IMG/VR virus record: IMGVR_UViG_2541047857_000009
Strand: one strand, 5' to 3'
DNA: 64,000 nucleotides
Origin: a virus
Taxonomy: Duplodnaviria; Heunggongvirae; Uroviricota; Caudoviricetes
Shown: positions 1,673-60,925 of the stretch, piece by piece
How the letters are laid out: each line of letters starts with the position of its first letter
Position numbering within the stretch: the first letter of the stretch is position 1
Program-made: the position numbers and the translations under genes
Notes under the pieces: model-generated
The model's input: only the letters and a program-made list of their open reading frames with translations
Database searches by the model: none
Told to the model about the DNA's origin: nothing

Positions 1673-1757
1673 TGCTCCCGGAACTGTCGGTTAATTCGGT
1701 TGAAGGTGAACGCCAGCAATAAAAAAGGCCGACTAAGCGACCTAGTGATTAGTGCCT

Positions 1758-1949
1758 TCATGCTGCACCGCCTTCATTCTTCTCGGCTTCGACCGCCATC
1801 TGCTCAAGCCGTCGCGATAGCTCGGCGGCCAGTTTCTGGAATTCTTCTTCGGTCGCCACCGGGATCGGCACAAAGCGAATCCCTATGTGCGCCAGGTGGT
1901 TGGCGATTTCGAGGCTTTTCCTCAAATCAACTGGTGAGGCTCTGTTCAT
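1758..1949 (-). CDS. hypothetical phage protein
   Basis: 63-aa ORF in operon, ATGA-coupled to neighbour. Confidence 0.35.
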   Translation of the reverse strand: MNRASPVDLRKSLEIANHLAHIGIRFVPIPVATEEEFQKLAAELSRRLEQMAVEAEKNEGGAA

Positions 1950-2242
1950 GCGGCGCGATCCTCTTCCTGGAAGATAATTTCCATTTCAAGCTTCTCGGCC
2001 AACGCATTCTCCGCTCGGGCACCAGCGGAGTGCTCCCAGCCTTCAAGCATGTAGATAGCATCAGCACAGCGAAGCATAGACAGGCAGATGTCCATGTACT
2101 CGGCCTGGGTTAATCCATCTGGTAGACGGGCGGGATTCAGAACAATATGGCCTTTCGACCAGAGATGAAAATGCGCATGGTTAAAAGCGGCGCGGTTAAA
2201 ATTAGGTAGGCCGCTCATGGGCCCGGCAATATAAACTTTCAC
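1946..2242 (-). CDS. DUF4406 / nucleoside 2-deoxyribosyltransferase-like protein
   Basis: MKVYIAGPMSG N-terminus and LEGWEHSAGA motif typical of DUF4406. Confidence 0.55.
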   Translation of the reverse strand: MKVYIAGPMSGLPNFNRAAFNHAHFHLWSKGHIVLNPARLPDGLTQAEYMDICLSMLRCADAIYMLEGWEHSAGARAENALAEKLEMEIIFQEEDRAA

Positions 2243-2457
2243 GATTCCACTCCGAAGCGGCGATTAAGCCGCCCTGTGTATACGACGAACTCCAGGAGGC
2301 TAACTCCCATAGCTTCAATTTTCTTATGATGCTTGTTGATGATGGGAGGCACCGTTTCGTTCCAGTTAGGCTTTGGCTTCTTGCGCATGGCCTGCTGGAT
2401 TTCTTCGGTGCAGCGGCGGCAGGCGGAGCGGATGGCGTTGTCAGTTTCTGGCGTCAT
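2239..2457 (-). CDS. hypothetical protein (CxxC-containing)
   Basis: ORF with start overlapping methyltransferase stop (ATGA). Confidence 0.3.
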   Translation of the reverse strand: MTPETDNAIRSACRRCTEEIQQAMRKKPKPNWNETVPPIINKHHKKIEAMGVSLLEFVVYTGRLNRRFGVES

Positions 2458-3005
2458 GCAGCCTCCCGGCGGGCGAGAAGTTTCGCCCCGAAAGCCATCA
2501 GCTCGTCCCGGTCCACAGTTGCGAAGTGGCAATGCGTTCGGGGGTATGGCCGCCAAATAATCAGGATGGATCCTTTGCTATTTCCCGATACCGGCTTACC
2601 GGTGACCGGGTTAATAAATGCCAGCCGCCCGGCGGTGATGAAGCGAACATCGCTGGCGGTCTGGATTGCCTCCTTGAACCAGCCAACCGAAGTGTCAGCT
2701 GGGACAAGCATGACCGTGCCGATCTGATTGGCGCTCTCGGCGGCGGCCTTCTTAACAAACGGTGTAATGTCGCTGTATGGCGGGTTCAGCCAGACGTAGC
2801 CGGGAATGTTCAGGTAATCAGCCCAGGGCGTTTCCAGCGTGTTCTGCTCGGCGGTGATGAACTTGCGGCAAAGGGCGTTATGCGGGGCCGCGGCGGCATC
2901 CAGTTGGAAGCAGAACTCAGCATCAAGGGAGGCGAAGAGGGCGGGTGGAGTGCGCCATAGGTCACGCTGATCCGCTGGGGTGTTGCTGCCGGTGTAATCA
3001 GTCAT
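2454..3005 (-). CDS. phage DNA N6-adenine methyltransferase
   Basis: 183 aa with NPPY catalytic motif (LNPPYS) characteristic of N6-adenine MTases. Confidence 0.7.
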   Translation of the reverse strand: MTDYTGSNTPADQRDLWRTPPALFASLDAEFCFQLDAAAAPHNALCRKFITAEQNTLETPWADYLNIPGYVWLNPPYSDITPFVKKAAAESANQIGTVMLVPADTSVGWFKEAIQTASDVRFITAGRLAFINPVTGKPVSGNSKGSILIIWRPYPRTHCHFATVDRDELMAFGAKLLARREAA

Positions 3006-3154
3006 GCCGCCTCCTGCCTTTCCCGATATTCCTCAGCGAGCCGCTGCGCCTTTAATGGATTGCTTACCACTTCACCCCATGGCATTAGCCAGCCGTTACC
3101 AATGAAGGGAAGGCACACAGTGCCAACCCTGATGTCGTCGTGAGCGTGAGTCAT
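3002..3154 (-). CDS. small hypothetical protein (50 aa)
   Basis: ATGA-coupled at both ends within the operon; not in ORF track (<60 aa). Confidence 0.3.
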   Translation of the reverse strand: MTHAHDDIRVGTVCLPFIGNGWLMPWGEVVSNPLKAQRLAEEYRERQEAA

Positions 3155-3585
3155 AGGATGGACTCCATTTCGTCGATGTAGAGGCCCTGAGCAATCAGGC
3201 GACTACGGCGGGCGGCACGTTCAATGCACTCCTGCCGTCTACCTTCCTGCGATTGTTCAATGGCGCGCCGGGTGAACAGCCGCGATTTACCCTGTGGCGT
3301 AATGACCTTTGGCTTCGTGACCAGGTCGAAAGTCCGGTCGCAGATTCCGTCCTCGTTGATCCATTTCTCAGACTCAACTATCTGCGCTATCTGTCCGGTG
3401 CCGCGGGTGATGCCGTTGGCGACCCGGTTAAACTCAATGAGCGTTACGCCAAACTTCTCAGCGATTTCACTACCGGTTACCGGGCGGCCGCGCGTCTGAA
3501 TCATCCAGATAACGCGCTCACGGAGACCGGAGAATTGCCCGGTTCGCCCGGGCCGACGGTAGAAGGGTGTGCGTTTCATTTCCAC
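3151..3585 (-). CDS. hypothetical protein, possible winged-helix DNA-binding
   Basis: 144-aa ORF in early-left operon. Confidence 0.4.
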
Positions 3586-4256
3586 TGCTCCCCGAACGTG
3601 AAGCCGATCTCCGCCAGCGCCTCGTCCATCTTCTCGATGAACTCCGGCACCATTTCTTTGAAATCGGTCATGTACTGTGGATCCCGCTCAACGACGACGT
3701 GGTGAATACCTTCGCGCTTCATGCGCGGGTCGTAGTTGGCAAAGAACCAGGCGTCTTTTCCGGTAACCCACATGCTGTACTGCACCTGGGCCATGTACGC
3801 AGACTTGATGGCTTCGAAACCGCCAAGGCGGAACTTCATGAAGTCGCGAGAGGTGAAAGGGCATTTAAGCTCAAGGCCGAACCCGTTACTGCACAGGCCG
3901 TCAGGGGAGCACGCGGTGCGCATGCTCTCGTCACGGAACAGGATCGGCGACTCCGTGACTTTCACGTCGGTGGTGAACTCGAAGAGGGTACGAGCGTCTT
4001 CCTCGTACTGCTTACCCCAGGCCAGCGCCTTAGCGTTAACCTCTGGCGCTACGCCTGTGCATACCTCGGCGAGCAGCGTGTGGAAGTAGGACATTTTCAT
4101 ATCTGTCCACTTCTTCCCCGATCTTGGCTTGGATATGACGTTGTGTACTTCTGAGGCAGTAATGACACCGAGGCGCAGCCGGTGCCACGCCTCATCGCCC
4201 TGTTGGATAGTGGTTACGTCAATGCCGGTCCGAGCTAGGATAATTTTCGGTGTCAT
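3576..4256 (-). CDS. exo: lambda exonuclease (Red-alpha) homolog
   Basis: 226 aa, near-colinear with lambda Exo as I recall it (MTP.IIL.RTGIDV...[31 protein letters not shown]). Confidence 0.85.
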
Positions 4257-4459
4257 AGTTTTACCCTGTATACGTTCTGCTTATTTGAACGGGTGCCATC
4301 GTGAAACCATATTGCGCACCTGGTGACTTCTATCCATTTACGCCGCTCAAGCTCGGCGATGAACCATGAAACGCGAGACCTTGAAATGCCTAAAATCTTT
4401 GCCATGTCGCGAATGCTGTGCTTTCCGCTTCGCAACAGTGAAAGCAGGGAGGGTGTCAT
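4253..4459 (-). CDS. small HTH protein
   Basis: 68-aa ORF between bet-like and exo; [24 protein letters not shown]-like. Confidence 0.4.
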
Positions 4460-5316
4460 GCTGCCGCCTTAGCTTTTTTCTGAAGGAAGTTGAACCCTTT
4501 CTGTGCCTCTTCTTCAGTGAGGTCGGACGCCTCAAGAATTGGCCGTTTGAAGATGTCGCTGCACACTGGGAGGAAGTCTTCCTCCCAGTCTTTATTCAGC
4601 GATGTTAAGAGATCGGTGATCGCCTGAAGCGTTTCTTCGCTTGCTGCTGGTGGAAGTGCTTCTGTGGTGCTGCGCGGCGTGACGTCACGGATATCAACGT
4701 CCAGTGATTTGCCTTCCATTTCTTCGGCGGTAGGCTGCTGTCCAATCTCAGGCCATGCCTTACGCAACGCCTGAGCTTCCGCGCATTTCGCCAGCTGTCC
4801 GTATGGGCGCTTTTTCCACATCGCATTCGGCGCCGTTGTTTCGCGGCCGCCGGTGGCATAGTTTTCAATCCAGTATTCTTTGGCGCTGAACTCGACGATC
4901 TCGCCGCTGGGCATGCGCTTGAAAACGGTGTATTTGCACCACTGAGGGAAGGTCACCTCGACACCAGTAAGCGTCTGAGTTACATCGGGCCCGAACTCAG
5001 GCTCCCGTGCCCCGGCATAATCGCCAGAGCGGTCTGCCTGAATGCGGTAAAGCCCGATTCCTGGCATGACCACGTCGCGCCAGTCACCTTTACCTGTTTT
5101 CGAGTCTTTGACGTACATCGGAACGAGGTGGACAGGTTTGAGCAACGGATCCAGCTGGCGGGCGCGGCAGTAGTCAAGCGCCATCATTACCGATTCGTCT
5201 TTGGCGCCAGGGTAGATGCTGTTCTTCAGTGCACTCCAGGTGGAGACGTCGACGCCTATCTCCTGAAGCGACTTCGCTGTGATTGTTAATTCGTTTGCCA
5301 TCGTTAATCCCCTCAA
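4456..5316 (-). CDS. Red-beta/Bet-family single-strand annealing protein
   Basis: C-terminal 60 aa closely resemble lambda Bet C-terminus (ETLQAI..LL..L.K.W..D.LP.CS.IF.R); sits upstream of exo. Confidence 0.7.
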   Translation of the reverse strand: MRGLTMANELTITAKSLQEIGVDVSTWSALKNSIYPGAKDESVMMALDYCRARQLDPLLKPVHLVPMYVKDSKTGKGDWRDVVMPGIGLYRIQADRSGDYAGAREPEFGPDVTQTLTGVEVTFPQWCKYTVFKRMPSGEIVEFSAKEYWIENYATGGRETTAPNAMWKKRPYGQLAKCAEAQALRKAWPEIGQQPTAEEMEGKSLDVDIRDVTPRSTTEALPPAASEETLQAITDLLTSLNKDWEEDFLPVCSDIFKRPILEASDLTEEEAQKGFNFLQKKAKAAA

Positions 5317-5319
5317 AAA

Positions 5320-5604
5320 TTAAAACGGGCAGCCGGTACGGTGTTCCCAGTCGTATTCCGCCTGGGCGTAAGCAACTACCGAAATGAAATCGTTGTAGGC
5401 CTCGCCAGCTTTATCGCTGCGAAGCCCTTCGTATGGGCTGGAGTCTATCGGGATCGTGAAGTGGAAGAGGCCGGACGGCTCTTTAGGCATCATGTCGATG
5501 ATTTTCTGCGCCCGGTCGTCGATCCACTTCTCTTTCTCGTCGGTGATCTGCTGCTCAGCCCAGCGCCGATCTTCGATGCGGTCGTAAGTGAGGTATGCGT
5601 TCAT
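5320..5604 (-). CDS. hypothetical protein
   Basis: 94-aa ORF. Confidence 0.4.
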   Translation of the reverse strand: MNAYLTYDRIEDRRWAEQQITDEKEKWIDDRAQKIIDMMPKEPSGLFHFTIPIDSSPYEGLRSDKAGEAYNDFISVVAYAQAEYDWEHRTGCPF

Positions 5605-5611
5605 GGTTGCC

Positions 5612-6583
5612 TCAGTAATGAATTTTCGCGCAGGGGATCAGGTCATCTTTCAGAGCGGTAAGCACTTCGATAGCCTGCTCGCGGGTTAAGCTGGTTTGGC
5701 TGGTGAGCGCGTTAACGATGTTGGTGCCGACCGTCTTGCGGTGCTTAACGTCAGCTTCACGCTTTGCCTGCTCATCGGCGAGGCGCTTCTCTTCGGCCAG
5801 GCGGGCATCTTCGGCCTGTTTGGCCTTCAGGCGCTCGGCTTCAACCGCCGCGGCTTTTTCGCGTTCCGCCCGGGCTTCCGCTTCCTGCTTCTCGCGAGCT
5901 GCACGCTGTTCCGCTTCGACGCGCTGGCGCTCCGCCAGTTCAGCGCGGGCTTTCTCTTCGGCTTCACGGCGCGCTGCGGCTTCAATCTCCGCTTTGTGCT
6001 TCGCTTCGGCATCGCGGCGGGCTTGTTCTGCTGCTTCCTGTTTCAGCCGCTCATCACGTTCACGCTGAGCCTGTTCCGCCAGACGGCGCTGCTCTTCGCG
6101 GTCACGGTCAAAATCCTTGTTCATCAGTAGAGCCATTTCGTGGTCCGCTTCGAACTTGGCAGCCAGCTCCTGATCGAACCTGATGTTCATCTCCAGCGCT
6201 TCGGCGTGCATCGCGTTCATGGCTTCTTCAGCCTTAATGCGTTCCTGCTCGGCTTCCCATTCGGTGAGTGGGCGGCGGGTCGCATCGCGCAGCTCGTCGC
6301 AGGCATCAACGAATCGCTTAATTTCGGCCTCAGCCGGACGCACAGCCTCTTTCAGGCGCTTCAGGTACTCACGGCCCGGCTTTTCGATTGCCGTCTTGCT
6401 GCGGGACACCTGCGCTGCCAGAGAGGCAACACGGTCACGGCCTTTCTTCGTGGACAGGTCCGGCACTTCGTTTACAGCCTGGCGGATTTGCTCAAGGTAC
6501 GCGTCAAGGCCGCCCGCTACGTAAAGCACTGGGGCCTGTTCCGGCTTGATTTCGATGACAGTTAAGTCCGTTACTTCGCTCAT
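5612..6583 (-). CDS. hypothetical charged coiled-coil protein
   Basis: 323 aa; central about 150 aa of E/R/A/K/Q-rich repeats. Confidence 0.45.
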   Translation of the reverse strand: MSEVTDLTVIEIKPEQAPVLYVAGGLDAYLEQIRQAVNEVPDLSTKKGRDRVASLAAQVSRSKTAIEKPGREYLKRLKEAVRPAEAEIKRFVDACDELRDATRRPLTEWEAEQERIKAEEAMNAMHAEALEMNIRFDQELAAKFEADHEMALLMNKDFDRDREEQRRLAEQAQRERDERLKQEAAEQARRDAEAKHKAEIEAAARREAEEKARAELAERQRVEAEQRAAREKQEAEARAEREKAAAVEAERLKAKQAEDARLAEEKRLADEQAKREADVKHRKTVGTNIVNALTSQTSLTREQAIEVLTALKDDLIPCAKIHY

Positions 6584-6652
6584 GGTTTCTCCTGAAATTT
6601 GGATGTGCAGATCCCGCCCGCAGAAGCCAGGCCGATCGGTTTAATAGGATGG

Positions 6653-57885: not shown

Positions 57886-58034
57886 CGAGATTAAAGTGCA
57901 TTAGTTCAGATGCAAATTGACATTTTGTGGCACAGGGTAGAGCTAGCGTGGTTGTCCGCTTTGTGCCAATAGCGGACATTGCTGGCTCATGGTATGTTAG
58001 TTTAAGGAGGCAGGTTATGCCCTGTATTTCGCTG

Positions 58035-58043
58035 TGGTATAAT
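58035..58043 (+). promoter_or_regulatory. extended -10 promoter (TGgTATAAT) for the AT-rich cassette
   Basis: Perfect TATAAT with upstream TG, then AGGGAG RBS and GTG 58077. Confidence 0.45.
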
Positions 58044-58076
58044 AGTTGCGCAATTGATACAAGGGAGCGTTACATC

Positions 58077-59039
58077 GTGAAAATTGTTTTCGAGGTTAAT
58101 GGAAAGAAAGTTCCACTAAAATCTTTAAAATACATAAGCAAAAAAGATCAACTCGAAGTAATGAAAAACTGGTTCTTTGAAAACTTTGAAGATCCGGCAA
58201 ATGCTTGTCCGTATGAAAGTAGAGAAGGTGGCTATGCTTACATATATGGCGGGCCGTATGATGCGAGCGAAGAACTACAATCCATCTTCGGTCAATATGT
58301 TAAATCTGAGTATATTGAGGAATTAGTAGATGAATTACAAACACAATGTTTTGACTGGTCTGGAAACTCAAATAATATAGATGATTGGTACGATGATGAT
58401 ATCTACGACGCTGTAACGTCTTCCGGTAATCCGTATTTAAAATTCATTGATAATATCGATAAAATAAAAAAACTTGCAAAAGATAAAACTGAACAACAGC
58501 AAAAAAACCACTTGCTTAGTTTGCTCTACACGAATGTTATTACAGCTTTGGAAACGCTTTATGTTGAGCTATTCATTAATTCTATAGAGAAAGATGATGT
58601 CTACATAGCCAATTGTATAGAAAAAGGTAAGACTGAATTTAAAGTAAGCAAAGATATTGCTGCGTTGCCTTTCAAGGGTGAACCCATCGAGAAAATTAGG
58701 GGAGAGCTAATCAGGTCAATCAAGGAACACTTGATCAGTGCAAGCTGGCATAGCACTAAAAAGGTAATCGACCGCTATGAAGCTACATTCGATATAAAAG
58801 TACAAAAAGACTGTCCGATAGAAGCTATTGAATTGGCAACCCTCAATCGAAATCACTTAGTGCATCGTGGTGGAAAGGATAAAGAAGGGAACCTCGTAGT
58901 GATTACAGACCAGGATCTTGAAACGCTGATTGAAAATGCATCGAACCTGGCAATTATGCTCTACAACAGTTTAAATGTAGCAACGAATAAAACCACCATT
59001 TTGCAACCAGATGACAAACCGTTCATTCATGAATTTTAA
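58077..59039 (+). CDS. cassette gene A: protein with C-terminal HEPN-like Rx4H motif
   Basis: 320 aa from GTG 58077 (alt ATG 58017); GC drops here; C-terminal LNRNHLVHRGG fits HEPN R-N-x3-H. Confidence 0.5.
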   Translation: MKIVFEVNGKKVPLKSLKYISKKDQLEVMKNWFFENFEDPANACPYESREGGYAYIYGGPYDASEELQSIFGQYVKSEYIEELVDELQTQCFDWSGNSNNIDDWYDDDIYDAVTSSGNPYLKFIDNIDKIKKLAKDKTEQQQKNHLLSLLYTNVITALETLYVELFINSIEKDDVYIANCIEKGKTEFKVSKDIAALPFKGEPIEKIRGELIRSIKEHLISASWHSTKKVIDRYEATFDIKVQKDCPIEAIELATLNRNHLVHRGGKDKEGNLVVITDQDLETLIENASNLAIMLYNSLNVATNKTTILQPDDKPFIHEF

Positions 59040-59054
59040 TAGCGCAGGTCATAC

Positions 59055-60056
59055 ATGGATATTCGCACACGAAAGACAAAATTTTTAGAGTCGTTAGATT
59101 CAACTGAAGTGATACGCAAAGCAGTAAGTCTCGCTATAGATTGCATTATTGATAATCATAATAGTAATGAAGATACCCCCTTAGTTATTACCAGCTATGA
59201 TGATCTCTGTAGAATCCAGGTGCTAAATTATGTACAGGAGTTTTGCGAAGCTGCATTCCCTGATATGGATGAATATTACTTTAGTCCTAACATACTTCGC
59301 ATCAACGGCAAGACTAGTGAAGAAGCTTGTATTAACTTAATTAAACTCTTAAGAAGTACAAAAGGCATGCTATTCTGGTCCGATGCCCCATCGTGGTTCG
59401 CTAGCCTCCCCGACGGATTATTCCATGTTGTTAACATTGATCAAAAAATCGTTACTCGCGGCCTTAATAAGAAAAACTCTAAGCCGACAATAATCAATAA
59501 AGATTACAGTGTAGATACACTACTATCAGAGCTATTTTTGAATGGCGCACACATGGAGCAACCCAACGTACACAACGTTTCTGAGGGAAACATGAAGTTC
59601 TATGATGAATGCCATGCTGGATTAATCAGACCAATACCCGCTCCAATAGGCGCGTCATACGATGAAGAGATCACAATTAATTCTCCAGATTGGCAAAAGC
59701 TCGCGTGTGTAGCTTTACGCCGCTATCAGTCGAAGGAATGTCATGACGGAATGCAATGGGATACAACCGATCATGGTTGGACTGATGTAATCGCGTATCC
59801 ATTCGTCGAAGAAATACAATCAATGGATAATAGTGGTTATCGACAATGTTTAGTTGGGCTGGTCACAATAAACAATTCAAATGCAAATTCTCCGTACCTA
59901 TCTACCGTTTGGATACATCCATTTTATCGCAGGAGAGGGTTATTAAGTAAGTTATGGCCAAAATTACAAGAGTTATATGGAAGTAACTTCGAAATTGAGC
60001 GACCTAATGAAAATATGAAAGCATTTCTGAAAAGTGCGAAACACGCAGATTACTAA
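59055..60056 (+). CDS. cassette gene B: protein with C-terminal GNAT-like acyltransferase fold
   Basis: 333 aa, 15 nt after gene A; C-terminus CLVGLVTIN...WIHPFYRRRGLLSKLW resembles GNAT motif A region. Confidence 0.45.
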   Translation: MDIRTRKTKFLESLDSTEVIRKAVSLAIDCIIDNHNSNEDTPLVITSYDDLCRIQVLNYVQEFCEAAFPDMDEYYFSPNILRINGKTSEEACINLIKLLRSTKGMLFWSDAPSWFASLPDGLFHVVNIDQKIVTRGLNKKNSKPTIINKDYSVDTLLSELFLNGAHMEQPNVHNVSEGNMKFYDECHAGLIRPIPAPIGASYDEEITINSPDWQKLACVALRRYQSKECHDGMQWDTTDHGWTDVIAYPFVEEIQSMDNSGYRQCLVGLVTINNSNANSPYLSTVWIHPFYRRRGLLSKLWPKLQELYGSNFEIERPNENMKAFLKSAKHADY

Positions 60057-60372
60057 TTTATGAATCAGTCTGTGGAGTTAGGGTTGGTGTCAACAAGTAG
60101 GGTAAGAGCCTCAACGTGATGCTATGCCGACCTGCTCCCTGAGAATTCACACAGAAGGCTGCTAGCAATGTCTGCAGATCGCTCAAAGCGGACTAGAAGG
60201 TTAGCTTGCGTCGGACTTGGCGTATTTAAAGAAGTGCTGGTGGTGACTGGTTGTTGTGTTCCATTTCTACAGAACAAAATCACAGAAACTATACCCAATA
60301 GTTATATTGAATCAATGATGAGACAGCCTCATATTTATCAGAACTGGTGTACGTCCAATACAGGAGGTTGTC

Positions 60373-60462
60373 GTGCTGGTTCTCAAATGTGCGCTAGCTA
60401 TTGCGGCTGTAATGGCAATTTATTGTCTTGCTGTTGTTCTTATGGATCGCCTTTCTGATTGA
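60373..60462 (+). CDS. candidate small hydrophobic peptide (29 aa)
   Basis: AGGAGG RBS 5 nt before GTG; MLVLKCALAIAAVMAIYCLAVVLMDRLSD; not in ORF track. Confidence 0.25.
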   Translation: MLVLKCALAIAAVMAIYCLAVVLMDRLSD

Positions 60463-60673
60463 TTTTATATTGGCGAGGTGACGGGAGTTAAGTAGAATTG
60501 CTGCGGGTGCTTGAGGCTATCTGCCTCAGGCATGAACACCAAAGGCAGATAGAGAAAAGCCCCAGTTAATATTACGCGTCCTGCAAGACGCTTAACATTA
60601 ATCTGAGGCTCAATCTATGAACGGCAAATCTAGGTTAGCCTCTTACGTGCCGAAAGGCAAGGAGAAGCAGGCT

Positions 60674-60829
60674 ATGAAGCAGCAAAAGGCGATGTTAATC
60701 GCCCTGATCGTCATCTGTTTAACCGTCATAGTGACGGCACTGGTAACGAGGAAAGACCTCTGCGAGGTACGAATCCGAACCGGCCAGACGGAGGTCGCTG
60801 TCTTCACAGTTTACGAACCTGAGGAGTAA
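60674..60829 (+). CDS. hok: Hok/Gef-family type I toxin (in-frame Mok extension from 60617)
   Basis: MKQQKAMLIALIVICLTVIVTALVTRKDLCEVRIRTGQTEVAVF close to HokC/Gef as recalled; 70-aa in-frame upstream ORF as for mokC. Confidence 0.75.
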   Translation: MKQQKAMLIALIVICLTVIVTALVTRKDLCEVRIRTGQTEVAVFTVYEPEE

Positions 60830-60898
60830 GAGACCCGGCGAGGGAGAAATCCCTCGCCACCTCTGATGTGTCAGGCATCCTCAACGCACCCGCACGTA

Positions 60899-60925
60899 AC
60901 CCGCTTCGGCGGGTTTTGTTTTTTC
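60899..60925 (+). terminator. rho-independent terminator after hok
   Basis: CCCGC-ttcg-GCGGG plus T-rich tract. Confidence 0.65.

Follow-up and report, generated by a model that had tools for sequence, protein, structure and literature searches.

The AT-rich two-gene block upstream of hok/sok in the window (the whole 64,000-nucleotide stretch of viral DNA that was analysed) is, on balance, best explained as one mobile cassette in which gene A encodes an autonomous RNase of the abortive-infection type and gene B is accessory cargo. We consider this reading somewhat better than even.

Location and setting of the cassette

The two genes and the adjoining stabilisation locus are arranged as follows.

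58077..59039, + strand: gene A, 320 aa, HEPN/RES-NTD1 domain followed by a C-terminal HEPN domain
59040..59054, + strand: A–B spacer TAGCGCAGGTCATAC, 15 nt, with a weak Shine-Dalgarno-like AGGT
59055..60056, + strand: gene B, 333 aa (WP_000354966), N-terminal alpha/beta domain and C-terminal GNAT-like domain
60505..60829, + strand: neighbouring hok/sok locus, outside the cassette (mok 60617–60829; hokD 60674–60829, RefSeq hokD)

The GC content of A is 0.361 and that of B 0.391, compared with 0.496 in the left flank and 0.516 in the right flank. Together with the 15-nt gap and the conservation of the operon, this is in agreement with the preliminary description of the locus as an AT-rich two-gene operon. 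The hok/sok locus is intact, and the Rfam sok model RF01794 matches 60505–60679 at 113 bits. In the Qin prophage of K-12 the gene order is relB-relE-hokD, as the preliminary description states, and A-B lies where relBE lies there; position is all that the two pairs share. The flanks had also been called Qin-like, which holds on the hok side, where similarity begins at 60660, but not on the left, where the replication genes and DUF977 have no counterpart in Qin. The slot is thus defined by a DUF977 replication-module gene and hok/sok, in a lambdoid prophage integrated beside ompW. The host is of the phylogroup-B2 type of E. coli, and the cassette region is 100% identical in S88, APEC O1, IHE3034 and UTI89. 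Carriers account for 209 of 5426 complete E. coli genomes (∼4%), a patchy distribution borne by mobile genetic elements. A Cys-rich ORF of 96 aa at 60168–60458 was rejected as a third gene because inter-phage substitutions in it fall mainly at codon positions 1 and 2 (four of five close comparisons) and RefSeq has no annotation there.

Architecture of the A protein

Within and upstream of gene A, the following elements were distinguished.

58004..58019, + strand: AAGGAGG Shine-Dalgarno and in-frame ATG 58017, alternative start or leader of gene A (340-aa form), read from the sequence
58035..58043, + strand: extended −10 promoter-like element TGGTATAAT, read from the sequence, of putative function
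58077..58376, + strand: HEPN/RES-NTD1 (PF18870), A residues about 1–100, the most conserved part (WFxxNFEDP...YGGPYDA)
58494..59000, + strand: HEPN helical bundle, A residues about 140–308
58848..58865, + strand: Rx4H catalytic motif R258-N-H-L-V-H263, within the C-terminal LNRNHLVHRGG

Homology across its family points to the HEPN/RES-NTD1 plus HEPN (MAE_18760 / RiboL-PSP-HEPN) architecture for A. PF18870 matches A with an E-value of 1.9e-4 and 22.2 bits, under the gathering score of 27.4, and matches 56 of the 59 members of the A family (E up to 0.01). P45, G58, G59 and P60 of this domain are invariant, and in a further set of loci (L028–L083) it is joined to other C-terminal regions. The C-terminal part of A has the four-helix up-and-down bundle fold of the HEPN superfamily. 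PF18735, the C-terminal HEPN family, does not match A itself, and 29 of the 59 aligned homologues match it (best E 7e-11). R258, H263 and R264 are invariant across the 59 homologues, so the earlier reading of LNRNHLVHRGG as a HEPN Rx4H motif stands. The C-terminal HEPN domain with its intact motif is a predicted metal-independent RNase. No match to a RES domain was found in A, whose C terminus is HEPN. The gene is under purifying selection (omega 0.12–0.20).

Gene A is annotated in RefSeq (WP_014639476) from GTG 58077, inside an enclosing ORF of 370 aa (57927–59039). The start at 58017 given in the preliminary description corresponds to the upstream in-frame ATG with its Shine-Dalgarno sequence, and the resulting 340-aa form is used by PHROG 17908, cluster P0001 and some gene callers. 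The annotated start is the GTG, with which A homologues that start at ATG (e.g. L007) line up, and VKIVF is the start of A at all four paired loci. The extended −10 element assigned to A is present, but it was absent from the list of a simple consensus promoter scan because it has no −35 hexamer. It is kept in the A-deleted derivative L090, in which 57954–58049 is joined to B; a second A-deleted derivative, L091, keeps only 57956–58010.

Architecture of the B protein

Two regions of B bear on its fold.

59592..60053, + strand: GNAT-like domain, B residues about 180–333 (Foldseek and homology)
59928..59945, + strand: motif-A-like R292-R-R-G-L-L, with R292 invariant

Structural comparison presents B as a GNAT fold with an N-terminal extension of 180 aa. 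Foldseek matched it with probability 1.0 to MYST/Esa1, AAC (aminoglycoside acetyltransferase) and RibT, and with probability 0.97–0.99 to HAT1 (E-values across GNAT structures of 2e-4 to 3e-3). PF00583 is matched by 17 of 43 B-family members and reaches 19.9 bits on B itself, against a gathering score of 20.7. These results support the GNAT-like C-terminus noted earlier. When compared with the GNAT motif A, Q/R-x-x-G-x-G/A, the Arg and Gly are kept in B and the final G/A is replaced. B is also under purifying selection (omega 0.16–0.33).

Boundary palindromes and sister cargos

The edges of homology coincide with two palindromic sites.

57954..57977, no strand: left boundary palindrome (L site), GTCCGCT-TTGTGCCAAT-AGCGGAC, placed by homology edges and recurrence at other cargos
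60170..60193, no strand: right boundary palindrome (R site), degenerate copy GTCTGCA-GATCGCTCAA-AGCGGAC, placed by homology edges and the R-type consensus

Sequence comparison defines 57954–60193 as one mobile, palindrome-bounded cargo cassette, the boundary being a point added by the present analysis. On the left, homology to the Erwinia and IMG/VR cassettes begins at 57953–57956, and homology to phages with other cargos stops at 57980/57981. On the right, the cassette common to non-phage contexts stops at 60193–60198, and homology to other-cargo phages restarts at 60167/60179. The consensus boundary site is 24 bp long (GTCCGCT-N10-AGCGGAC), with L approximately the reverse complement of R. 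The R site is an arm of a 46-nt inverted repeat (57941–57986 / 60161–60206). Taken alone, this repeat does not exceed chance expectation (ungapped score 16 versus 13.7 ± 2.2 in 100 shuffles), and its interpretation as transposon terminal inverted repeats was rejected, with neither a target-site duplication nor a transposase found. It was re-read as paired palindromic sites because the weight comes from position and recurrence: the L site is found again where further cargos begin on the left, and L and R sites enclose additional cargos, mostly of defence-like character, at P2 Z/fun, in lambdoid slots and next to a P4-type integrase. In P2 itself, fun(Z) lies between the same L and R palindromes, and beside the P4-type integrase tandem arrays occur in which two L-cargo-R units are separated by 18 nt. 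None of 14 loci within the P2 G/FI flanks held the A-B cassette. An integron gene cassette, with attC sites of the R''-L''...L'-R' type, a GTTRRRY core and a nearby intI, does not describe the locus, because each cassette end has a single, simple 7+10+7 palindrome with GTCCGCT arms. The S88 annotation of the surrounding stretch includes no integron integrase, the prophage's integrase and excisionase next to ompW being the only such genes.

In other E. coli prophages the same slot holds FRG, DUF5677, Sll1717 ATPase, KilA-N and other cargos. The cargos found within the same palindromes are AT-rich, and five of ten tested match PADLOC models (TIR, PDC-S06 (AAA_13), PDC-M68A (HNH), PDC-S33 (RelA/SpoT) and a trypsin-like domain). 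This company suggests an anti-phage role for A-B by association, which is not proof. The arrangement resembles the P2/P4 hotspots and the PeSL cassettes of T4-type phages, in which AT-rich defence or orphan cargos are swapped at fixed positions of the phage genome. Short conserved promoter/stem-loop motifs flank each PeSL cassette in T4-type phages (PMC2839356, PMC4122927); PeSLs are promoter-terminator composites unrelated in sequence to L/R, whereas L/R sites are also found in lambdoid slots and tandem arrays. For the P2/P4 hotspots, the mechanism of exchange was left open and palindromes were not mentioned (Rousset et al. 2022, PMC9122126). We tentatively propose, while regarding it as doubtful, that the L/R palindromes are the crossover or recognition sites of cassette exchange by a putative recombinase, which would shuttle AT-rich defence cargos, including A-B, among three or more types of site (P2 Z/fun, the lambdoid DUF977-hok slot and islands beside P4-type integrase), and would also stack them in integron-like arrays. 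If true, L/R-site exchange would supply the mechanism left open by that study.

Comparison with known systems

In searches of PADLOC-DB v2 (E up to 1), A matched no family with an E-value below 0.009 and B matched none at all. NCBIfam and PDB sequence searches returned no match for either protein, PHROGs gave only two families of unknown function, the Pfam matches included no nucleotidyltransferase, RelE or RelB family, and no literature was found on the RefSeq accessions of A and B. The statement in the preliminary description that the pair cannot be assigned is consistent with the PADLOC result, but it does not extend to the domain architecture of A, which is recognisable from the PF18870 and PF18735 matches in its family.

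HEPN-bearing defence systems listed in a review are PD-T4-2, PD-T4-5, PD-T7-3 and ApeA (PMC10952713). The combination of NTD1 and HEPN was predicted to be Abi-like, yet had not turned up among established Abi systems (Anantharaman et al. 2013, PMC3710099). A shares architecture and motif with this MAE_18760 / RiboL-PSP-HEPN plus HEPN/RES-NTD1 group (PF18735 + PF18870) and differs from it in the GNAT partner: for some MAE_18760 HEPN genes, a ParA/Soj ATPase is the partner that recurs, and the word GNAT is absent from that paper, which mentions no such partner (PMC3710099). A close parallel in organisation is aRES (NTD1 + RES), a validated standalone defence protein whose RES domain converts NAD+ to ADPR-1''-phosphate, with growth arrest upon infection (bioRxiv 10.64898/2026.01.28.702374). 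Both have the PF18870 N-terminal domain in a single two-domain polypeptide and belong to mostly non-operonic families carried by mobile elements or defence islands; the effector of A is a HEPN domain (predicted RNase) and not RES. With regard to standing alone, the A family is mostly solo, and the copy in the window has a conserved downstream GNAT gene.

ApeA and DARNA (PD-T7-3) are, like A, single-protein HEPN Rx4H nucleases fused to a sensing domain, and abortive infection through tRNA anticodon-loop cleavage has been described (DARNA preprint). In DARNA the HEPN domain is N-terminal and an ssDNA sensor C-terminal, so both domain order and partner domains are unlike those of A. DARNA and PD-T4-2 were rejected as the identity of A because domain order differs and no HMM match was found. 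B resembles the toxins of GNAT/RHH modules (TacT, AtaT, KacT, ItaT) as a GNAT fold on a mobile element, but at 333 aa it is twice the toxin length (∼170 aa) and orphan B copies are tolerated. No RHH/DUF1778 antitoxin gene lies next to B, and the S88 annotation shows no small partner ORF.

Proposed function and relation of A to B

Both a two-gene operon and a promoter of its own appear to lie within the cassette. The HEPN/RES-NTD1 domain of A would be a regulatory or sensing module that leaves the protein inactive in the lysogen. Infection by another phage would switch A on, and the activated nuclease would arrest translation by cleaving tRNA, rRNA or mRNA, resulting in abortive infection. The logic may be like that of aRES, in which the same N-terminal domain governs a RES effector and the protein works alone. 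B, a predicted acyltransferase whose catalytic domain is a member of a family of small phage-borne GNATs, accompanies A and diverges together with it in one clade. It would be accessory cargo, with either an independent activity of its own or a modulating effect on the range of A.

The A-B pair was found in E. coli, Erwinia, an Aeromonas ICE and a metagenomic contig. Identities to E. coli in the other three lineages are 93/86/78% for A and 89/79/74% for B; divergence is congruent, the dS values of the two genes are matched over the four lineages, and the 15-nt spacer length and its pattern TAGnGCAGGTnATAn are kept in all four. Co-divergence and the fixed spacer argue for some functional coupling. 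Beyond this clade the picture is different. B is present at one of 23 assessable species-level A loci and missing from the other 22, and A relatives of 71–77% identity occur without it in four settings. A 75%-identical homologue stands alone in the tin/old position of a P2-like prophage (gene-A replication protein, ApeA-like gene, A homologue, Ogr, portal), and further solo copies are found in a resolvase/AlpA islet of E. coli and beside sucD in Aeromonas. Across 80 loci of A-family/NTD1 genes, the full-length HEPN form has no recurrent neighbour. All distant B relatives examined are likewise solo, in housekeeping or ICE contexts. The refutation test named in the preliminary description, a lack of co-occurrence of the two genes elsewhere, thus has a mixed outcome: the pair persists in a narrow clade, and the idea of a necessary two-gene system is not supported. 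Across the loci compared, A does not require B for viability.

It is rather unlikely that the genes are two unrelated morons hitch-hiking as one block, with A a defence RNase and B acetylating a small molecule or, as counter-defence, a host or rival-phage protein. There is precedent for the latter in AcrVA5, a GNAT anti-CRISPR. The GNAT domain of B is homologous to free-standing phage proteins of 150–170 aa (E 1e-37 to 1e-21), one of which is placed between the replication and terminase genes of a phage genome; both families occur alone, and cassettes with these boundary sites can contain multiple unrelated genes. However, the kept spacer and matched dS speak against independence, the A–B interval shows no evident promoter-like element, and nothing points to a substrate of B.

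An obligate two-component defence or toxin-antitoxin system of type VII is also unlikely. B would gate A by acetylation, or its N-terminal domain would bind A, and infection would stop B or reverse the mark, freeing A. MntA, for comparison, AMPylates HepT. In addition to the tight, co-diverging operon, this explanation draws on losses of one gene: A was lost or truncated with B retained at least three independent times (L090/L091, L099, L092), and four E. coli genomes have only a partial A, while B is complete in 209 of 209 carriers. Such losses are what one would predict with a costly A and a harmless B, and a toxin-antitoxin pair would leave the same pattern. A Marinomonas B homologue also adjoins a different HEPN-family gene (weak Abi_2 match). 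Against these points stand the many A loci lacking B and the solo distant B relatives. In E. coli SF-173, moreover, IS1 lies within B at about residue 187, ahead of the GNAT domain, and A is identical and intact; this rules out a need for the GNAT domain but not for the N-terminal domain, because B could still be synthesised up to residue ∼187. Compared with HEPN-MNT (HepT/MntA), the neighbour of A is GNAT-like and not a nucleotidyltransferase, A is a 320-aa protein with an extra domain that survives without its partner, and the gene order, nuclease before partner, is opposite to that of MNT-HEPN (PMC3710099).

A role outside defence, with A acting as a prophage nuclease in RNA processing or regulation, or as an addiction module that stabilises the prophage in place of relBE, and B as a metabolic acetyltransferase, is improbable: the relBE position, the adjoining hok/sok and the absence of a matching defence model fit it, but the conflict-type architecture (NTD1 joined to HEPN, to RES and to further C-terminal regions), the close A homologue beside an ApeA-like gene in the P2 tin/old hotspot, the defence-like sister cargos and the patchy, mobile distribution do not.

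Implications

If protective against phages, A would be the first aRES counterpart with a HEPN effector to have been tested. HEPN/RES-NTD1 would then be a portable switch for chemically different effectors (RNA cleavage and NAD+ breakdown), whose trigger could be approached through both at once. Whether acetylation tunes or licenses a HEPN nuclease could be tested cleanly with the conserved GNAT partner, and the palindrome-bounded cassettes provide a concrete, testable handle on cargo exchange at phage defence hotspots. The cassette is carried by the extraintestinal pathogens S88, UTI89, APEC O1 and IHE3034, and a protective A would matter for phage therapy against carriers.

Organization of the cassette and its flanks

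The cassette (window positions 57954–60193) comprises genes A and B, which encode an HEPN-type and a GNAT-like protein, and a left-type (L site) and a right-type (R site) boundary palindrome.

Features of the cassette and its right flank
57954–57977: L site, loop consensus of type YTGTGCCANN
58004–58076, + strand: region with an in-frame ATG (58017) preceded by AAGGAGG, which would yield a 340-aa A
58077–59039, + strand: gene A, 320 aa from GTG (start according to RefSeq)
59055–60056, + strand: gene B, 333 aa, starting 15 nt past the end of A
60170–60193: degenerate R site, loop consensus of type YYTCGCTCAN
60505–60679: sok (Rfam match, 113 bits)
60674–60829: hokD

The two adjacent, AT-rich reading frames with a 15-nt gap noted in the preliminary description were observed here, with GC contents of 0.36 (A) and 0.39 (B) versus 0.50 and 0.52 for the flanks. 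The lambdoid prophage beside ompW of E. coli S88 is identical to the window across the cassette stretch, which is also 100% identical in APEC O1, IHE3034 and ATCC 11775. Homologues of A back the position of the GTG start. The in-frame ATG with its strong Shine-Dalgarno sequence lies 60 nt upstream of this GTG, overlaps the TGGTATAAT element, and corresponds either to a leader or to an alternative start giving 340 aa.

A full hok/sok locus follows the cassette. The gene order of the K-12 Qin prophage is relB-relE-hokD, in line with the preliminary description, whose assignment of both flanks as Qin-like holds for the right flank only, because homology between the window and Qin begins only at 60660. 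Just downstream of hokD, positions 60838–60919 show a sub-threshold match to isrK, an Hfq-binding sRNA (Rfam; E 0.003, 27.8 bits where the gathering score is 50). The unannotated sequence that separates sok from the R site (60168–60458), which is 95–98% conserved among the closer phages, contains a 96-aa Cys-rich reading frame that is probably not coding, because substitutions between phages fall mainly in codon positions 1 and 2 of that frame in four of five close comparisons.

Gene A combines HEPN/RES-NTD1 with a C-terminal HEPN motif

Residues 26–92 of A gave a sub-threshold Pfam match to HEPN/RES-NTD1 (PF18870). A search of 5.8 billion proteins yielded 122 relatives. Alignment of 59 of these showed R258, H263 and R264 within RNHLVHRGG to be invariant, which bears out the C-terminal Rx4H-type HEPN motif proposed earlier; the N-terminal core WFxxNFEDP...YGGPYDA is invariant too. 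When the 59 members were scanned singly, PF18870 was found in 56 and PF18735 (RiboL-PSP-HEPN) in 29. The architecture seen in the A family corresponds to the fusion of HEPN/RES-NTD1 to a MAE_18760-family HEPN catalogued by Anantharaman et al. 2013, who called it Abi-like and noted that known Abi systems had not yet included it (PMC3710099). In aRES, a stand-alone protein whose trigger was not reported, HEPN/RES-NTD1 is fused to RES; the protein protects E. coli by depleting NAD+, with arrest of growth (bioRxiv 10.64898/2026.01.28.702374). The N-terminal domain family is thus common to A and aRES, whereas the effector is a predicted HEPN RNase in A and RES in aRES. A is a new effector variant on an already known architecture and not categorically new.

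HEPN/RES-NTD1 is also joined to other C-terminal regions, some apparently membrane-spanning as judged by eye, and is found C-terminal to an ImmA-like or HEPN-like region as well. Because it is fused in varied orders to varied partner regions, the domain appears to behave like a portable regulatory module. In Hyphomonadaceae (seven loci, L059–L064 and L078), HEPN/RES-NTD1 proteins with a hydrophobic C-terminal region are encoded immediately after conserved genes of 477 aa and 522 aa. The product of the latter, which ends ...KQPFKFYI, may be PIWI-like, and the gene group could be a short-Argonaute-type operon.

Gene B ends in a GNAT-like domain

The Pfam match of B to GNAT (residues 264–311) was borderline. 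The structure model (pLDDT 90, pTM 0.82) matched MYST/Esa1, aminoglycoside acetyltransferases and RibT at a probability of 1.0 and HAT1 at 0.97–0.99, with modest E-values (2e-4 to 3e-3). Together with PF00583 in 17 of 43 B relatives, these matches support the GNAT fold suggested for the C-terminus. The motif-A position reads R292-R-R-G-L-L, with R292 invariant. Searching 1.84 billion representatives with a profile showed the full-length family to be small (about a dozen clusters) and residues ∼180–330 to be homologous to free-standing proteins of 150–170 aa (E 1e-37 to 1e-21). The N-terminal 180 residues have no recognisable relative. One free-standing relative is located between the replication and terminase genes of a phage genome.

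Linkage of A and B

Four settings contain the A–B pair: E. coli, Erwinia sp. ErVv1, a metagenomic contig, and a mobile element of Aeromonas caviae, probably an ICE, which carries a relaxase gene and in which the pair adjoins SIR2 and cREC genes. All four share the 15-nt spacer (TAGnGCAGGTnATAn) and a GTG start for A. The two proteins diverge congruently from their E. coli counterparts (93/86/78% identity for A, 89/79/74% for B), and dS of A and B is alike within each comparison (omega 0.12–0.20 for A, 0.16–0.33 for B). These features argue for linkage of A and B. The survey of A loci argues against an obligate link: a full-length A relative is present at 24 species-representative loci, of which one was cut by a contig end, and B is beside A in only 1 of the 23 assessable ones. 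The co-occurrence raised in the preliminary description therefore held in four settings and failed at 22 of 23 A loci. A and B are each present in 209 of 5426 complete E. coli genomes, and since all but one are at least 99% identical, the E. coli copies amount to a single recent clone and carry no independent weight.

Neighbour clustering gave no recurrent partner of A-family genes, and solo relatives of both proteins exist, which also speaks against obligate linkage. Solo A relatives (71–77% identity) reside in an E. coli resolvase/AlpA islet, in Aeromonas beside sucD, and in a P2-like Yersinia prophage. In the latter, the order is P2 replication gene A, an ApeA-like gene (ApeA_NTD1 + HEPN_Apea), the A homologue, Ogr and portal, so that the homologue occupies the P2 tin/old position. 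Solo B relatives (39–62% identity) are present in Serratia (conjugative element), Shewanella, Neptunicella and Marinomonas. The Marinomonas epiphytica homologue (L095, 4038–4679; 51% identity) lies next to a divergently oriented gene with a weak match to Abi_2, an HEPN family other than that of A.

Natural variants separate the two genes. Deletions removed most of A from L090 (58050–58977 gone; left boundary site, TGGTATAAT element and B kept) and from L091 (58011–58997 gone; left boundary site and B kept), and in L099 A is reduced to its final 196 nt, with B retained. The L090 cassette lies downstream of a gene (1736–5329) for a 1197-aa protein with the P-loop-like motif GLSGVGKTR and is followed by IS fragments, a tyrosine-recombinase-like remnant and further L/R cassettes. 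In L092 (IMG/VR, 5644–6606), a deletion that took A and the start of B produced a 320-aa chimeric reading frame (protein P0148) with an N-terminal part from a DnaC-like replication protein and B residues 133–333. In E. coli SF-173 (L096, NZ_CP012631, 2501–4279), IS1A is inserted in B at about residue 187 and A is identical and intact, a case that serves as a natural test for a dependence of A on B.

The most likely reading, which we favor with modest confidence, is that A would be a predicted HEPN RNase that is autonomous, triggered by infection and of the aRES type, with B as an accessory GNAT cargo; we infer the RNase activity and the trigger of A and the substrate of B. That A and B are two unrelated morons, as the solo relatives would permit and the shared spacer and congruent divergence disfavor, is unlikely. 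A type VII-like pair, with A controlled by B, would fit the conserved arrangement in four settings, with the 22 A loci that lack B against it, and is likewise unlikely. A non-defence role for the cassette is very improbable.

Boundary palindromes

A repeat search revealed an imperfect inverted repeat of 46 nt that coincides exactly with the cassette edges (57941–57986 and 60161–60206), which alone was not above chance. The cassette common to non-phage contexts extends from 57953–57956 to 60193–60198, and phages with other cargo match the window as far as 57980/81 and once more from 60167/79 onward. At either edge, the segment common to both is a 24-bp palindrome, GTCCGCT-N10-AGCGGAC, and conservation on the cargo side ends at its edge. 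The R loop resembles the reverse complement of the L loop.

An exact L-site pattern scan of IMG/VR matched at least 120 stretches, of which 80 loci were read. In these, the next site downstream of L, where found, was 466–5779 nt away and most often of the R type. The palindrome-bearing loci include the window, L002, L003, L090, L099, L112–L191 and phage P2 (AF063097, 15335–15358). Tandem arrays (L-cargo-R, 18 nt, L-cargo-R) are present in L112, L120, L155, L170 and L174, and also in L090 and L099, the last adjoining a P4-type integrase. Among the matches listed, about one-third of 80 L sites are in the lambdoid DUF977-hok slot. This slot holds other cargos in other phages and prophages: a regulator and an acetyltransferase in phage Evi; in phage Tritos, a gene recorded as hypothetical that is an FRG-domain gene according to a matching E. 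coli prophage annotation; and DUF5677, a Sll1717-type ATPase, QueH and KilA-N in other E. coli prophages. In K-12 Qin, one R-type palindrome (TTCCGCTTCTTGCTCTTAGCGGAC) lies between flxA and ydfW (L103 8973–8996; NC_000913 1646972–1646995), which suggests that the flxA-ydfV-relBE block entered via the same kind of site, the hok-side site having since been lost.

Another third or so of the 80 L sites are in P2-like phages, at the Z/fun locus, which separates the tail-fibre genes H/G from sheath gene FI. In P2 itself, fun(Z) is bracketed: an L site lies 60 nt past gene G, and a degenerate R site precedes the pF promoter. Site-specific recombination at variable loci of P2 reportedly features in the title of Nilsson et al. 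2004, and an earlier description of the sites for P2 is possible. Variable loci of P2-like phages have been described as anti-phage-system hotspots next to cos; the exchange mechanism was left open, with no such sites mentioned (Rousset et al. 2022, PMC9122126). The nearest documented concept is the PeSL cassettes of T4-type phages (PMC2839356, PMC4122927).

Many palindrome-bounded cargos are AT-rich (GC 0.33–0.40 in most) and largely defence-like. PADLOC models matched 5 of 10 tested cargo proteins: a TIR protein, PDC-S06 (AAA_13; E 9e-72), PDC-M68A (HNH-like), PDC-S33 (RelA/SpoT-like; E 5e-119) and a trypsin-like domain. The boundary sites are a more unusual lead than the gene pair that they enclose.
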